NCBI GenBank assembly: GCA_963723745.1
Contig: CAVRRZ010000001.1
Coordinates: 1,334,183 to 1,374,182, forward strand
Direction of reading: 5' to 3'
DNA: 40,000 nucleotides
Origin: an uncultured Actinomycetota bacterium
GTDB lineage: Bacteria; Actinomycetota; Actinomycetes; Mycobacteriales; Geodermatophilaceae
Shown here: positions 29,909 to 40,000 of the stretch, in pieces
Layout: each line of letters begins with the position of its first letter
Position numbering within the stretch: position 1 is the first letter of the stretch
Made by a program: the position numbers and the translations under genes
The notes under the pieces: model-generated
What the model was told of the DNA's origin: nothing
Database searches by the model: none
What the model saw: the letters and a program-made list of their open reading frames with translations, nothing else

Positions 29909-32450
29909 ATGTTCGAACGGTTCACCGACCGAGCCCGACGGGTGGTCGTCCTGGCCCAGGAAGAGGCCCGGATGCTCAACCACAACTACATCGGCACCGA
30001 GCACATCCTGCTGGGCCTGATCCACGAGGGTGAGGGCGTCGCCGCCAAGGCGCTGGAGTCCCTCGGCATCTCGCTCGAGGGCGTCCGCCAGCAGGTCGAG
30101 GAGATCATCGGCCAGGGCCAGCAGGCGCCGACCGGGCACATCCCGTTCACGCCGCGGGCCAAGAAGGTGCTGGAGCTGTCGCTGCGCGAGGCGCTGCAGC
30201 TCGGCCACAACTACATCGGCACCGAGCACATCCTGCTCGGCCTGATCCGCGAGGGCGAGGGCGTCGCCGCCCAGGTGCTGGTCAAGCTCGGCGCCGACCT
30301 CAACCGGGTCCGCCAGCAGGTCATCCAGCTGCTCTCCGGCTACCAGGGCAAGGAGCCGGCCGCGGCCGGCGGCCCCGCCGAGGGCACGCCGTCGACCTCG
30401 CTGGTCCTCGACCAGTTCGGCCGCAACCTGACCCAGGCCGCGCGCGAGGGCAAGCTCGACCCGGTCATCGGGCGGGAGAAGGAGATCGAGCGGGTCATGC
30501 AGGTGCTGTCCCGCCGGACCAAGAACAACCCGGTCCTGATCGGCGAGCCCGGCGTCGGCAAGACCGCCGTCGTCGAGGGCCTGGCCCAGGCGATCGTCAA
30601 GGGCGAGGTGCCCGAGACGCTGAAGGACAAGCAGCTCTACACGCTCGACCTCGGCGCCCTCGTCGCCGGCTCCCGCTACCGCGGTGACTTCGAGGAGCGG
30701 CTGAAGAAGGTCCTCAAGGAGATCCGCACCCGCGGCGACATCATCCTGTTCATCGACGAGATCCACACCCTCGTCGGTGCCGGTGCCGCCGAGGGCGCGA
30801 TCGACGCCGCCAGCATCCTCAAGCCGATGCTGGCCCGCGGTGAGCTGCAGACCATCGGCGCGACCACGCTCGACGAGTACCGCAAGCACCTGGAGAAGGA
30901 CGCCGCGCTCGAGCGCCGCTTCCAGCCGATCCAGGTCGGCGAGCCGACGCTGCCGCACACCATCGAGATCCTCAAGGGTCTGCGCGACCGCTACGAGGCG
31001 CACCACCGGATCAGCATCACCGACGCCGCCCTGGTGGCCGCCGCGACGCTGGCCGACCGGTACATCTCCGACCGCTTCCTGCCGGACAAGGCGATCGACC
31101 TGATCGACGAGGCCGGCGCCCGGATGCGGATCCGGCGGATGACCGCGCCGCCGGACCTGCGCGAGTTCGACGAGCGGATCGCCGAGGTCCGCCGCGACAA
31201 GGAGTCGGCGATCGACGCGCAGGACTTCGAGAGGGCCGCGTAGCTGCGCGACAAGGAGAAGACCGCTGCTCGGCGAGAAGGCCCAGCGCGAGAAGGAGTG
31301 GAAGGCCGGCGACATGGACGTCGTCGCCGAGGTCGACGACGAGCAGATCGCCGAGGTGCTGGCCAACTGGACCGGCATCCCGGTCTACAAGCTGACCGAG
31401 GAGGAGACCTCCCGCCTGCTGCGCATGGAGGACGAGCTCCACAAGCGGATCATCGGCCAGGAAGAGGCCGTCAAGGCGTCAGCCAGGCGATCCGGCGCAC
31501 GCGGGCGGGCCTGAAGGACCCGCGCCGTCCCGGTGGCTCGTTCATCTTCGCCGGCCCGTCGGGTGTCGGTAAGACCGAGCTGTCCAAGGCGCTCGCCGAG
31601 TTCCTGTTCGGCGAGGACGACGCGCTGATCCAGCTCGACATGTGCGAGTTCCACGACCGGTACACCGTGTCGCGGCTCGTCGGTGCCCCTCCCGGCTACG
31701 TCGGTTACGACGAGGGTGGCCAGCTGACCGAGAAGGTGCGGCGCAAGCCGTTCTCGGTGGTCCTCTTCGACGAGATCGAGAAGGCCCACCCGGACGTGTT
31801 CAACACGCTGCTGCAGATCCTGGAGGACGGCCGGCTCACCGACGGTCAGGGCCGCATCGTGGACTTCAAGAACACGGTCATCATCCTGACCACCAACCTC
31901 GGCACGCGGGACGTCGCCAAGGCGGTCGGCTCGGCTTCCAGGCCGGCGAACGACACGCGAGTCGAACTACGAGCGGATGAAGCACAAGGTCAACGACGAG
32001 CTCAAGCAGCACTTCCGGCCGGAGTTCCTCAACCGCATCGACGACACGTCGTGTTCCACCAGCTGACCGAGGACGAGATCCTCGAGATCGTCGACCTCAT
32101 GATCGCCCGGATCGAGAGCCAGCTGGCGAACAAGGACATGGGGCTGGAGCTCACCGACGGCGCCAAGAAGCTGCTGGCGAAGAGGGGCTTCGACCCGGTC
32201 CTGGGTGCCCGGCCGCTGCGCCGGACCATCCAGCGCGAGATCGAGGACGCGCTGTCGCGAGAAGATCCTCTTCGACGAGCTGACCGCCGGCCAGATCATC
32301 GTGGTGGACGTCGACGACGCGGAGGGCGCCGGCGCAGAAGTTCACCTTCCGCGGCGAGGCCAAGCCGATCGACCTGCCCGACACCCCGCCGGTCGCCCTC
32401 TCGGGCGCCGACGGGCGACGAGGACGGCCGGCGGCCGCCAGGCCGAGTAA
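29909..32450 (+). pseudogene. clpC: ATP-dependent Clp protease ATP-binding subunit ClpC, frame-disrupted in this sequence from nt 31241
   Basis: Start ATG 29909 with gaggag upstream. The first 444 codons are intact (two Clp_N repeats, GEPGVGKT). An in-frame TAG lies at 31241-31243. Beyond it, the protein can be followed only by switching frames at least 8 times ([16 protein letters not shown].., GPSGVGKTELSKAL, SNYERMKHKVNDELKQHFRPEFLNRIDD, GARPLRRTIQREIED, KILFDELTAGQIIVVDV). The probable end is TAA 32448-32450, just before a strong hairpin. Confidence 0.85.
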
Positions 32451-32457
32451 CGCCCGC

Positions 32458-32511
32458 ACGACCGACAGGGGCCGCTCCTCACCGCGCGGTGGGGGCGGCC
32501 CCTGTCGTCGT
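32458..32511. terminator. bidirectional stem-loop between convergent clpC and mutY
   Basis: gacaggggccgc (32464-32475) pairs perfectly with gcggcccctgtc (32495-32506). Flanking acgac/gtcgt extend the stem with one bulge. Confidence 0.6.
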
Positions 32512-32532
32512 GCCTCCGGCCCGATCGCCGGA

Positions 32533-37714: not shown

Positions 37715-38325
37715 GTGCGGACGGGACTGCCGTTCGACGACGTCCTCGCGGCCGCGCAGGCCGGAGCGGCCTGGGCGTTCGAGGTCCTGTACCGCGATCT
37801 CGTCGCCGTCGGTCACCGGCTACCTCCGGATGCACGGCGCCGCCGAGCCCGACGACCTCGCCAGCGAGACCTTCCTCGGCGTCTTCACCGGCCTCGCCGG
37901 GTTCAGCGGCGACGAGGACGCGCTGCGCGCCTGGGTCTTCACGATCGCCCACCGGCGGCTGGTCGACGACTGGCGCCGCCGCAGCCGGCGTCCCCAGGTG
38001 GCCGACGACCCCGGGGACCTCACGCGAGCTCCTCGGCGGGGACGTCGAGGACGACGTGCTGGTGGGCGTCGGCACCGAGACCGTCCACCGGCTGTGCGCC
38101 GGCCTGCCCGACGACCAGCGGTCGGTCCTCCTGCTGCGGATCCTCGCCGACCTCACCGTGGAGCAGGTCGCCCAGGCCATGGGCCGCTCCGTGGCGCTCG
38201 GTCAAGGCGCTCCAGCGCCGCGGGCTCCGGACCCTCCGCGGCCGCGATCGAGACCGTCCGCGAAAAAGTCGGTCCGCGACCGCGCACCCCTACGAGCCTC
38301 TCCGGCGATGACAGGGGTGAGATGA
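37715..38325 (+). pseudogene. ECF-type RNA polymerase sigma factor, frame-disrupted
   Basis: GTG 37715 has ggaggagg upstream. Region 2 (LRAWVFTIAHRRLVDDWRRR) and region 4 (LPDDQRSVLLLRILADLTVEQVAQAMGRSV..VKALQRRGLRTLR) lie in different frames, with at least 4 frame changes. The end is TGA 38309-38311 or TGA 38323-38325. Confidence 0.7.
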
Positions 38326-39267
38326 CCACAGCAGCCGACGACACCGCCGACGAGGCCGCCTTCGAGGCGTTCCTCGCCGGACGGCCCGCGCCCGAGGGGG
38401 CGGCCGACCTGGCCGCCTTCACCGGGGCGGTCCGGGCGACGGCGACCCGCCGGGGCGGCCCAACGCCGCGCTCGCCGAACTGCTGGCCACCGGTCTTCTC
38501 ACCGACCAGTCGAGCCCGTCCACCCGGACGGCCACATCGGCCGGGAAGTCGCCGCGGCGCTCCCGGGTCCGGAGACGGAGACGTTCGCCATGTTCTTCCC
38601 CGCCCTGCTCGCCAAGTTCCTCTCCGCCGGCGCCGTCGCGCAGGCCGCCACCGGTGCCGGGTCGTCCTCGTCGCGTTCACCGGCGCCGGCGTCGCCGGCG
38701 TCCTGCTCGGTGCCGCGTCCAGGACACCTTCACGTCGGTCGTCGGCGACGCGAGACCGCCGGGGAGGACCGCCGCCGAGACCGACGCCGAGGACCCGACG
38801 GCCACGAGATCCCGGCGCGGTCGACGGCACCGCGGTCAGACGAGGTGCCGGTCGAGCCGAGCTCCCGTCGTCGAGGAGCTCGACCACCGACGGGGCCGAG
38901 GACGGCCACCGAGGGTCCACTTCGGTCGACGTGGGTCAGCCGCGAGCGCGCATAACTCCGGCTGCGCGAGTGGCTGCGCGCCGAGGGATGGAACTCGGCG
39001 CCATGGTCAGCGACTGGGCGCACAACAAGGGCATGACGACCACGACCTGGCGAGGAGGGCGTGGACCTCGACGAGCTGAACGAGGACCGACCACCGAGCG
39101 GCCGCCGAGACCGAGGCGGCCGACGCCGACGACACCGAGGACGGCTGCCGACGCGAGCGCGGCAACGGCAGACGGCCGTGGCAACGGCGGCGGAACGGCA
39201 ACAGCAACGGCGACGGCAACGGCAACAGCGCGGCGACGGCAACGGCAGCGGGCGCGGCCACAACTGA
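38322..39267 (+). pseudogene. membrane protein downstream of the ECF sigma factor (possible anti-sigma factor), frame-disrupted
   Basis: ATG 38322 overlaps one candidate sigma stop (ATGA). N-terminus MTTAADDTADEAAFEAFLAG; hydrophobic segment FFPALLAKFLSAGAVAQAATGAG.VVLVAFTGAGVAG; C-terminal Gly/Asn/Asp repeat ending ..GRGHN-TGA at 39265-39267. Many frame changes. The functional call rests on context only. Confidence 0.35.
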
Positions 39268-39284
39268 CCCGGGCGGGGCCGCGG

Positions 39285-40000
39285 TCAGGTGACCGCGGCC
39301 CCGCCGAGCAGGATCAGCACGACGTCCAGCACCGTCAGCAGCAGGACGGCCGGGAAGGCCAGCCGGCGGAACCGGGCCGTCCGGCCAGCGCGGCCACCAC
39401 GACCGCCGGGACGGCGAGGCCGAGGCCCACCCAGCCGGCCGCCGTCGGCGGACCGTCCGGGCCGAGGACCAGGACGACCGAGGCGCCGCCCAGCAGGAGC
39501 GCGCCGGCGAGCGCCGAGACCCGCGCGCCGAGCCGGTGCGGCAAGCCGCGCACGCCGGTCGCGAGGTCGTCCTCGAGATCGGGGGCGACGTTGGCCAAGT
39601 GGGCGGCCGCCCCCAGCGCGCCGCCCGCGGTGACCAGCCACCAGGGCGCGGTCGGCGTCCCCGGGGCCGCGGCGACCACGCCGGCGGGCAGCGCCCCGAA
39701 TCCGGTCACGTACGGGACGACCGACACCCGGTGCGCTTCAGGCCCGGCGTTGTAGGCCCAGCCGCTCGCCACGAGCACGAGCAGGAGCACGCCCGGGACG
39801 ACGCCGAGCAGGAGCGACAGGACGACGGCGAGCGCGGCGGCGAACAGTGCGGCCGACCGCAGGAGCGCGGGCTCACCGCCCCCTGGACGACGGGCTTGTC
39901 GGCCCGCGCCGACGGCCCGGTCGCGGTCGGCGTCGAGCCAGTCGTTGCTCCAGCCGATGGACGCCTGACCTGCGAGGACGGCCGCGCAGACCAGGGCCAC
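39285..40000 (-). pseudogene. UbiA-family prenyltransferase (5' end outside the window), frame-disrupted
   Basis: Polytopic protein with NDWLDADRD (NDxxDxxxD). After local frame correction the following motif reads RADKPVVQGAVSP. The C-terminus continues in another frame (RTARFRRLAFPAVLLLTVLDVVLILLGGAAVT-stop at 39285). Confidence 0.6.

Follow-up and report, generated by a model that had tools for sequence, protein, structure and literature searches.

Does the abrupt change from intact to frameshifted genes at position 31241, inside clpC, record the inactivation of a run of adjacent genes or a fault in the sequence itself? The window, i.e. the whole stretch of 40,000 nucleotides that was analysed, has a G+C content of ~73-77% and is Geodermatophilaceae-like in character. 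An initial annotation, made from the letters alone, had described intact genes before 31241 and nine consecutive broken genes on both strands after it. Both sides of this position were compared by frameshift-aware protein-to-DNA alignment with orthologues from Geodermatophilus amargosae (L002), and the downstream side also with a second reference, a JGI contig (L086) in which all nine genes are intact. The features concerned are as follows.

1..31240, no strand: clean control region with 28 intact ORFs and clpC codons 1-444
31241..40000, no strand: tract dense in indels, 53 or more lesions at ~6-7 per kb, continuing off the window
29909..32442, plus strand: clpC, intact to 31240, then a stop codon and 9-10 indels
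31241..31243, plus strand: nonsense codon TAG at clpC codon 445, where the closest relative has TCG; the first detectable lesion
32608..33473, minus strand: mutY-like HhH-GPD glycosylase gene, 4-6 frameshifts; the corrected protein matches Pfam HhH-GPD and HHH
33588..34269, plus strand: gene for a conserved 225-aa protein, 9-10 frameshifts, no Pfam match; intact orthologue at 10098-10775 of L086
34308..35392, minus strand: disA, 2-3 single-base insertions (34419/34421, 35293/35296, possibly 35447); Pfam DAC and DisA-linker
35498..36867, minus strand: radA, 7-8 frameshifts, all single-base insertions; Pfam Zn_ribbon_LapB, AAA_25 and ChlI
37061..37507, minus strand: LpqE-like lipoprotein gene, 4-6 frameshifts; the orthologue in L086 and in Blastococcus brunescens (L084) carries PF04314
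37703..38322, plus strand: ECF sigma factor gene, 4-5 frameshifts; Pfam Sigma70_r2 and Sigma70_r4
38322..39214, plus strand: gene after the sigma gene, 4-9 frameshifts, the low identity making this count uncertain; the L086 protein has 294 aa and no Pfam match
39288..40000, minus strand: UbiA-family prenyltransferase gene, 3-5 frameshifts including compensating pairs, continuing off the window; Pfam UbiA on the corrected protein

Three approaches agree with the earlier view that the genes before 31241 are intact. A reference-free GC3 frame HMM resolved 33 coding segments before 31265, all but one of which (32/33) stop no more than 46 nt from their own in-frame stop codon, the remaining one being 72 nt short. 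All 28 upstream ORFs gave end-to-end, single-frame Pfam domain matches, and alignment to the G. amargosae orthologues detected no frameshift in 6,090 nt (7 CDS pieces, 24.4-31.24 kb). Putative upstream frameshifts at 24271, 24321 and 27583, seen in stop-to-stop translations, proved to precede the real start codons and were gone when the true CDS were used.

At the same stringency, 46 frameshifts were found in 7,788 nt downstream of the boundary relative to G. amargosae, and the second, independent reference, L086, yielded 50 in 7,021 nt, which corresponds to a density of 5.9-7.1 per kb from 31241 to at least 39904. No comparable indel density exists upstream; if both sides had the same rate, the probability of finding every frameshift downstream would be ~3e-12 (L002 alignment). 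The frame HMM gave the same picture: 17 of the 22 segments after 31265 end far from any in-frame stop, with same-strand frame hops every 70-500 nt. All nine genes from clpC to the UbiA gene, on both strands, are frameshifted relative to both references. The tract is thus confirmed as a real feature of the sequence, far beyond chance. Its lesions show Poisson-like spacing (n=53, mean gap 167 nt, CV 1.02, KS vs exponential p=0.69, index of dispersion 1.29), as expected from their earlier description as evenly spread.

The onset of the tract is sharp. The nucleotide alignment of clpC to G. amargosae (94% identity) contains zero gaps over 29909-31264, after which indels occur about every 100-200 nt (near 31265, 31476, 31930, 31948, 31957, 32047, 32258, 32331 and 32413). 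These clpC events were identical with nine different ClpC references; a further indel pair at 32154/32161 relative to G. amargosae represents natural in-frame variation. In the same nucleotide alignment the stop at codon 445 arises from C>A at 31242, at a position where 77 reference ClpC sequences have Ser, Ala or Arg. The tract extends to at least 39904 because compensating pairs are hidden in the UbiA gene, and its far end therefore lies outside the window. An end near 39400 had been considered, as 39382-40000 keeps one frame, and was rejected: UbiA motifs are recovered once compensating pairs at 39904/39872 (or 39863) and 39748/39728 are taken into account. High G+C was likewise dropped as an explanation for the boundary, since the two sides are similar in this respect and one kilobase upstream is just as G+C-rich yet clean.

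The lesion counts listed above are close to those proposed in the initial annotation for clpC (one nonsense codon and 8 indels), mutY (5), disA (2) and radA (8), and to its "several each" for the last four genes; the three sites that it had singled out each have a called event no more than ~10 nt away (33498, 36555/36556 and 38265). The gene for the 225-aa protein, presumably Rv3587c-like according to that annotation alone, is indeed frameshifted, and carries more lesions than the 6 first assigned to it.

Almost all of the lesions are indels of 1-2 nt, and substitutions are few. Insertions exceed deletions by ~3:1 (34:12 with L002, binomial p=0.0016; 39:11 with L086), and in disA, radA and mutY the comparison with L086 resolved 17 single-base gaps, every one of them an inserted C or G. 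Many events are located outside homopolymers, e.g. G[C]G at 32258, 33282 and 35702, C[G]C at 33148 and 35296, and the single T lost at 32047, while some lie inside short C or G runs (35690, 35984, 36556). This mixture of insertions, deletions and at least one substitution, in part unrelated to runs, had been recognized at the outset. The encoded proteins are otherwise well conserved and, once their frames are corrected, no less so than those encoded upstream. Frame-corrected DisA and RadA are 98% and 97% identical to their L086 counterparts, and the corrected C-terminal part of ClpC diverges from 76 references by 0.220, vs 0.230 for G. amargosae. Residues unique to the window are absent from the N-terminal part of ClpC and are limited in the C-terminal part to the stop at 445, C579, H692, D789 and frameshifted stretches, and it is only from the frameshifted stretches that departures at nearly invariant columns come. 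GC3 is preserved throughout the tract, and frame-corrected sequences revealed no relaxed selection in the form of excess substitutions, including nonsynonymous ones, consistent with the early remark that the fragments bear no other sign of decay.

Genuine, very recent pseudogenisation, in which dozens of frameshifts inactivated clpC, disA, radA and their neighbours, nine or more adjacent genes in all, would account for ORFs that are truly broken in the sequence as given and for the events in the slippage-prone short runs at 35690, 35984 and 36556. In natural decay, substitutions accumulate far beyond indels, and bacterial pseudogenes exhibit a deletional bias. The window instead combines >50 indels and hardly any extra substitutions with corrected proteins 97-98% identical to those of intact relatives, and its insertion excess is the reverse of that bias; thus, the spectrum of gene decay (deletion bias, association with homopolymers or repeats) is not the one seen here, where many events lie outside runs. 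Nor does decay predict Poisson spacing across genes and strands or an onset in the middle of a gene. Furthermore, full-length clpC is present in 77 of 80 related loci, and ClpC1 is essential in mycobacteria. Decay of the kind that occurred in Mycobacterium leprae is characterized by many substitutions, deletions longer than a single base, erosion of codon bias and the sparing of essential genes; its runs of adjacent genes with frameshifts and stops resemble the window, which has none of these other hallmarks. We consider pseudogenisation very unlikely. Similarly, it is hard to credit that the lesions are real in another way, as a localised burst of single-base insertions, too recent for substitutions, that destroyed nine adjacent housekeeping genes, for example through error-prone repair synthesis over ~9 kb or more, or because sequencing captured relic DNA or a non-viable cell that had been damaged. 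Programmed frameshifting and transcriptional slippage use one conserved slippery site per gene that is common to orthologues; with many sites per gene, single-frame orthologues and sites that are not conserved, they were rejected.

The abrupt change within a gene might also suggest a structural mis-join or chimera, with the part after 31241 derived from another organism or locus and joined inside clpC, a variant that the initial annotation had entertained. This did not withstand comparison with relatives, and we regard it as extremely improbable: no gap interrupts the clpC nucleotide alignment at the boundary, colinearity with L002 and L086 continues through 31241 and past it, and downstream gene order is the same. 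In addition, G. amargosae is among the nearest ClpC relatives on both sides, its third-codon-position divergence from the window's clpC is 11.7% before and 11.0% after the boundary, and codon-position composition after the boundary still fits a model trained upstream. A mixed-strain consensus, in which close strains were collapsed and spurious indels introduced where haplotypes disagree, is made conceivable by the possibility that the source is a MAG and by the broken genes also seen in related long-read metagenome contigs. Such a consensus should contain mainly mosaic substitutions, whereas the divergence from G. amargosae is unchanged, unique residues are not in excess once frames are corrected, and indels interrupt codons in which relatives do not vary and strains would be expected to agree; we therefore judge this origin very unlikely. 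A search for an independent assembly of the same species found none, the best relatives being ~84-86% identical at the nucleotide level over the tract (94% within clpC), and in a database clustered at 90% identity neither the 444-aa truncated ClpC nor the broken DisA was listed as a separate entry from the source contig.

The lesions are very probably uncorrected sequencing or assembly errors, i.e. a read-level consensus, unpolished or of low coverage, within an otherwise clean contig, a reading based on sequence comparison. Indels of 1-2 nt that are insertion-biased, Poisson-spaced and indifferent to gene, strand and essentiality, a mid-gene onset and conserved corrected proteins favor such an error tract over gene decay, the preference that the initial annotation had also expressed. 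From the lesions, their density, spectrum and onset, which are observed directly, we infer the cause in sequencing or assembly and the pipeline step that failed. The segment 31241-40000 would be of roughly single-read quality inside a well-polished contig, with a combined indel and substitution error of ~0.6-1%. Most likely, it was produced by a single-molecule (long-read) assembly or patch for which consensus building or polishing was effectively absent. Depth may have fallen to one or a few reads, the segment may lie close to a contig end or in a bridged gap, or a polishing block may have reverted to draft sequence. Most long-read errors are short indels, which fragment genes, and read error for R10.4.1 is ~1%, compared with below 0.05% for polished assemblies (PMC12007338); by these figures the accuracy of the tract matches the read level and not the assembly level. 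Insertion bias and many non-homopolymer events depart from the profile of classic nanopore assemblies, in which errors are dominated by deletions and homopolymers (PMC12007338), a profile also displayed by the B. brunescens record (L084). For Sequel CLR reads the ratio of substitutions, insertions and deletions is 22:45:33 (PMC9713900), and the insertion bias of the tract leans, weakly, toward a PacBio CLR-like source and away from nanopore.

Comparable errors have been described in long-read assemblies (Kastor, PMC12007338; Homopolish, PMC8011154), in which single-base indels and occasional stops likewise create false pseudogenes, indels outnumber substitutions, and the errors are detectable against orthologues. 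The damage in the window differs in being confined to a single sharp-edged block of 8.7 kb or more, in having a density (~6-7 per kb) >10x the <0.05% reported for a whole polished assembly (PMC12007338), and in being insertion-biased with about half of its events outside homopolymers. In the same neighbourhood of Blastococcus brunescens CP141261.1 (GCA_035320885.1), a public record from the same family, clpC, mutY, disA and radA are frameshifted as they are in the window, with 11 frameshifts in the five genes tested, a density below that of the window. These events are at different positions and are nearly all -1 deletions, some of them in C runs (C5 to C4); lysS is also affected and panC is called short (166 aa), so that no clean-to-dirty boundary is seen within 21 kb. 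Three ENA metagenome contigs (L081, L083 and L085) also have a broken clpC or disA, again at positions other than those of the window.

The pattern combines a clean-to-dirty switch in the middle of a gene, Poisson-spaced 1-nt indels, retention of GC3 and protein conservation that is unchanged after correction, and may allow unpolished stretches of public high-G+C assemblies to be detected without reads. The same check flagged comparable damage in the Blastococcus record, a public genome described as "complete", and in several of the ENA contigs. As such, the finding is a data-quality flag that is otherwise ordinary, a matter of quality control and not of biology. Read literally, the tract would add ~9 false pseudogenes, including clpC, disA and radA, and dozens of junk ORFs, and if left uncorrected it would distort gene counts, completeness estimates, and pangenome and selection analyses for this genome. 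We propose that the stop codon and the frameshifts are probably errors of the record rather than mutations of the organism, and that beneath them the housekeeping genes of this Geodermatophilaceae-like actinobacterium would be normal and functional.

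When orthologs from a Geodermatophilus amargosae locus (L002) were aligned to the DNA with a protein-to-DNA dynamic-programming aligner that tolerates frameshifts, using one fixed penalty for both sides, seven upstream CDS pieces (6,090 nt, 24.4–31.24 kb) yielded no frameshifts, versus 46, together with a TAG at 31241–31243, in 7,788 nt of downstream genes. Under an equal rate, the probability of all 46 lying downstream is ~3e-12. This is the abrupt switch from intact to indel-riddled genes that the initial annotation, which had proposed such an alignment, placed at 31241, and its manual per-gene indel counts fell within a few events of those from the aligner. 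Three first-pass upstream frameshifts were rejected because they were located 5′ of true start codons and were gone when the real CDS was used. Comparison with relatives, likewise proposed at the outset, gave the same picture: L086, a JGI metagenome contig in which all nine genes of the error-dense tract are intact, served as an independent reference and revealed 50 frameshifts in 7,021 nt of the tract. Most event positions in clpC, mutY, disA and radA agreed between the two references, the clpC events reappeared with nine different ClpC references, and clpC is full-length in 77 of 80 related loci.

The G+C content is 68–80% across the 40-kb window. Its nearest relatives among the sequences available for comparison belong to the Geodermatophilaceae, and no assembly of the same strain turned up. 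L002 is syntenic with 24.1–39.6 kb of the window, with aligned blocks of 74–86% nucleotide identity, and L086 shares ~86% nucleotide identity over 31.9–40.0 kb.

Three upstream genes served to train a frame HMM with seven states, which delimited 33 coding segments before 31265; for 32 of them, the segment end and its in-frame stop codon are no more than 46 nt apart, and the remaining one ends 72 nt short. Past 31265, the nearest in-frame stop is hundreds of bases away from the end of 17 of the 22 segments, and consecutive same-strand segments sit in different frames. Position-specific G+C likewise keeps a single phase through clpC until 31240 and changes phase repeatedly beyond. As originally described, 28 upstream CDS are uninterrupted, and all 28 ORFs have approximately end-to-end Pfam matches in one frame.

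Products among the 28 upstream ORFs, from Pfam
methyltransferase
MFS/Tmk
Pol III delta-prime subunit
FtsH
FolE/P/B/K
PanC/D
CoaX
LysS
Lsr2

One 819-aa open frame (876–3332, + strand) encodes an MFS transporter domain at aa 125–489 and, C-terminal to it, a complete domain of thymidylate kinase at aa 577–763. The product may be a fusion, or two separate genes may run together in a high-G+C frame that is poor in stops. The Lsr2 gene is separated from clpC by 413 nt of non-coding DNA (29528–29940; 414 nt in L002), presumably a long clpC leader. The region encoding the ClpC N-terminal domain contains an internal direct repeat of ~135 nt and ~80% identity (29963–30097 and 30188–30322), with cross-hits in every relative; this probably reflects the two repeated units of the predicted Clp_N domain.

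The first lesion of the tract is a C>A change at 31242, converting TCG to TAG. At the other end, 39382–40000 is clean by the HMM, yet it holds compensating pairs near 39904/39872 and 39748/39728, correction of which restored the UbiA motifs; therefore, the tract extends to the end of the window and its far boundary lies beyond. Pfam searches of the frame-corrected proteins bore out the gene identities assigned by eye, with matches to HhH-GPD (mutY-like), DAC and DisA-linker, RadA, ECF sigma and UbiA domains; the corrected product of the gene initially called Rv3587c-like had no Pfam match. In G. amargosae, a 533-aa gene (L002 17712–19313) separates the LpqE-like and ECF sigma genes; it is absent from the window (about 37620–37723) and from L086.

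The lesion process is homogeneous, random and indifferent to genes and strands, as the evenly spread load noticed at first reading had implied: for 53 events, the mean gap was 167 nt, the CV 1.02 and the index of dispersion 1.29, and the gaps fitted an exponential distribution (KS p=0.69). Both insertions and deletions occur, as originally reported, with net insertions to net deletions at 34:12 against L002 (p=0.0016) and 39:11 against L086; all 17 single-base gaps relative to L086 in disA, radA and mutY were insertions in the window, and the inserted base was always C or G. The mixture of run-associated and other events described by eye was also recovered. C runs were lengthened at 35690, 35984 and 36556, the last being the CCC run already singled out, while a GG or CC pair was split by G[C]G at 32258, 33282 and 35702 and by C[G]C at 33148 and 35296, and a lone T was lost at 32047, none of these being run-length changes.

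Based on this sequence evidence, we strongly infer that the tract is an assembly-quality artefact, in line with the main interpretation of the initial annotation. The most economical reading is that the consensus over the tract would be essentially read-level, possibly because coverage was low there, because the sequence comes from a read at a contig end or across a gap, or because polishing skipped a block. Modern single reads carry ~1% error and polished long-read assemblies <0.05% (PMC12007338); the indel density of the tract, ~0.6–0.7%, is of the same order as the former and far exceeds the latter. The insertion bias is nearer the PacBio CLR error ratios of 22:45:33 (substitution:insertion:deletion; PMC9713900) than the nanopore profile, in which deletions and homopolymer errors dominate (PMC12007338), a weak lean only.

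Real gene decay, which the initial annotation had ranked below an error tract, cannot easily produce this pattern. It would have to account for over 50 indels that are biased to insertions, in many cases lie outside runs and come with hardly any substitutions, for their Poisson spacing across nine genes on both strands and for an onset in the middle of clpC. The clpC gene is essential in mycobacteria. Codon bias and protein conservation are also fully kept, in agreement with the early remark that the fragments show no further decay: after frame correction, RadA shares 97% and DisA 98% identity with the intact L086 proteins, and the corrected C-terminal part of ClpC diverges from 76 references by 0.220 (L002, 0.230). 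Window-unique ClpC residues number zero in the N-terminal part; in the C-terminal part, apart from frameshifted stretches, they are limited to the stop and three single residues. The mis-join at the boundary that the same annotation had offered as a variant of the artefact is not supported. The boundary is crossed by a gap-free alignment (clpC versus L002, 94% identity, zero gaps over 29909–31264), downstream gene order agrees with L002 and L086, L002 is among the nearest ClpC relatives on either side, and the third codon positions of clpC diverge by 11.7% before the boundary and by 11.0% after it.

Damage comparable to this error tract occurs in other public assemblies of the family, at positions that differ between them with one exception. 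In Blastococcus brunescens CP141261.1 (L084), the same aligner found that lysS, clpC, mutY, disA and radA together carry 11 frameshifts, almost every one a −1 event, including C5 to C4 in disA; gene calls are fragmentary over the whole 21-kb locus (225270–246418) of this record, labelled "complete genome", whose assembly seems to suffer from indel errors of the deletion type. Three ENA metagenome contigs (L081, L083 and L085) have a broken clpC or disA. The exception is in clpC at 32258, where the window reads TCG[C]GAGAAG, L085 (ERZ25039585 contig_18779) TCA[GC]GAGAAG and L002 TCGGAGAAG; the L085 frameshift begins exactly at the insertion site of the window and is compensated 21 codons later. 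The window and L085 come from unrelated assemblies; their common site may mark a hot spot of systematic error or be a coincidence. The biological interest of the tract is low, and its chief use is as a warning about this record.
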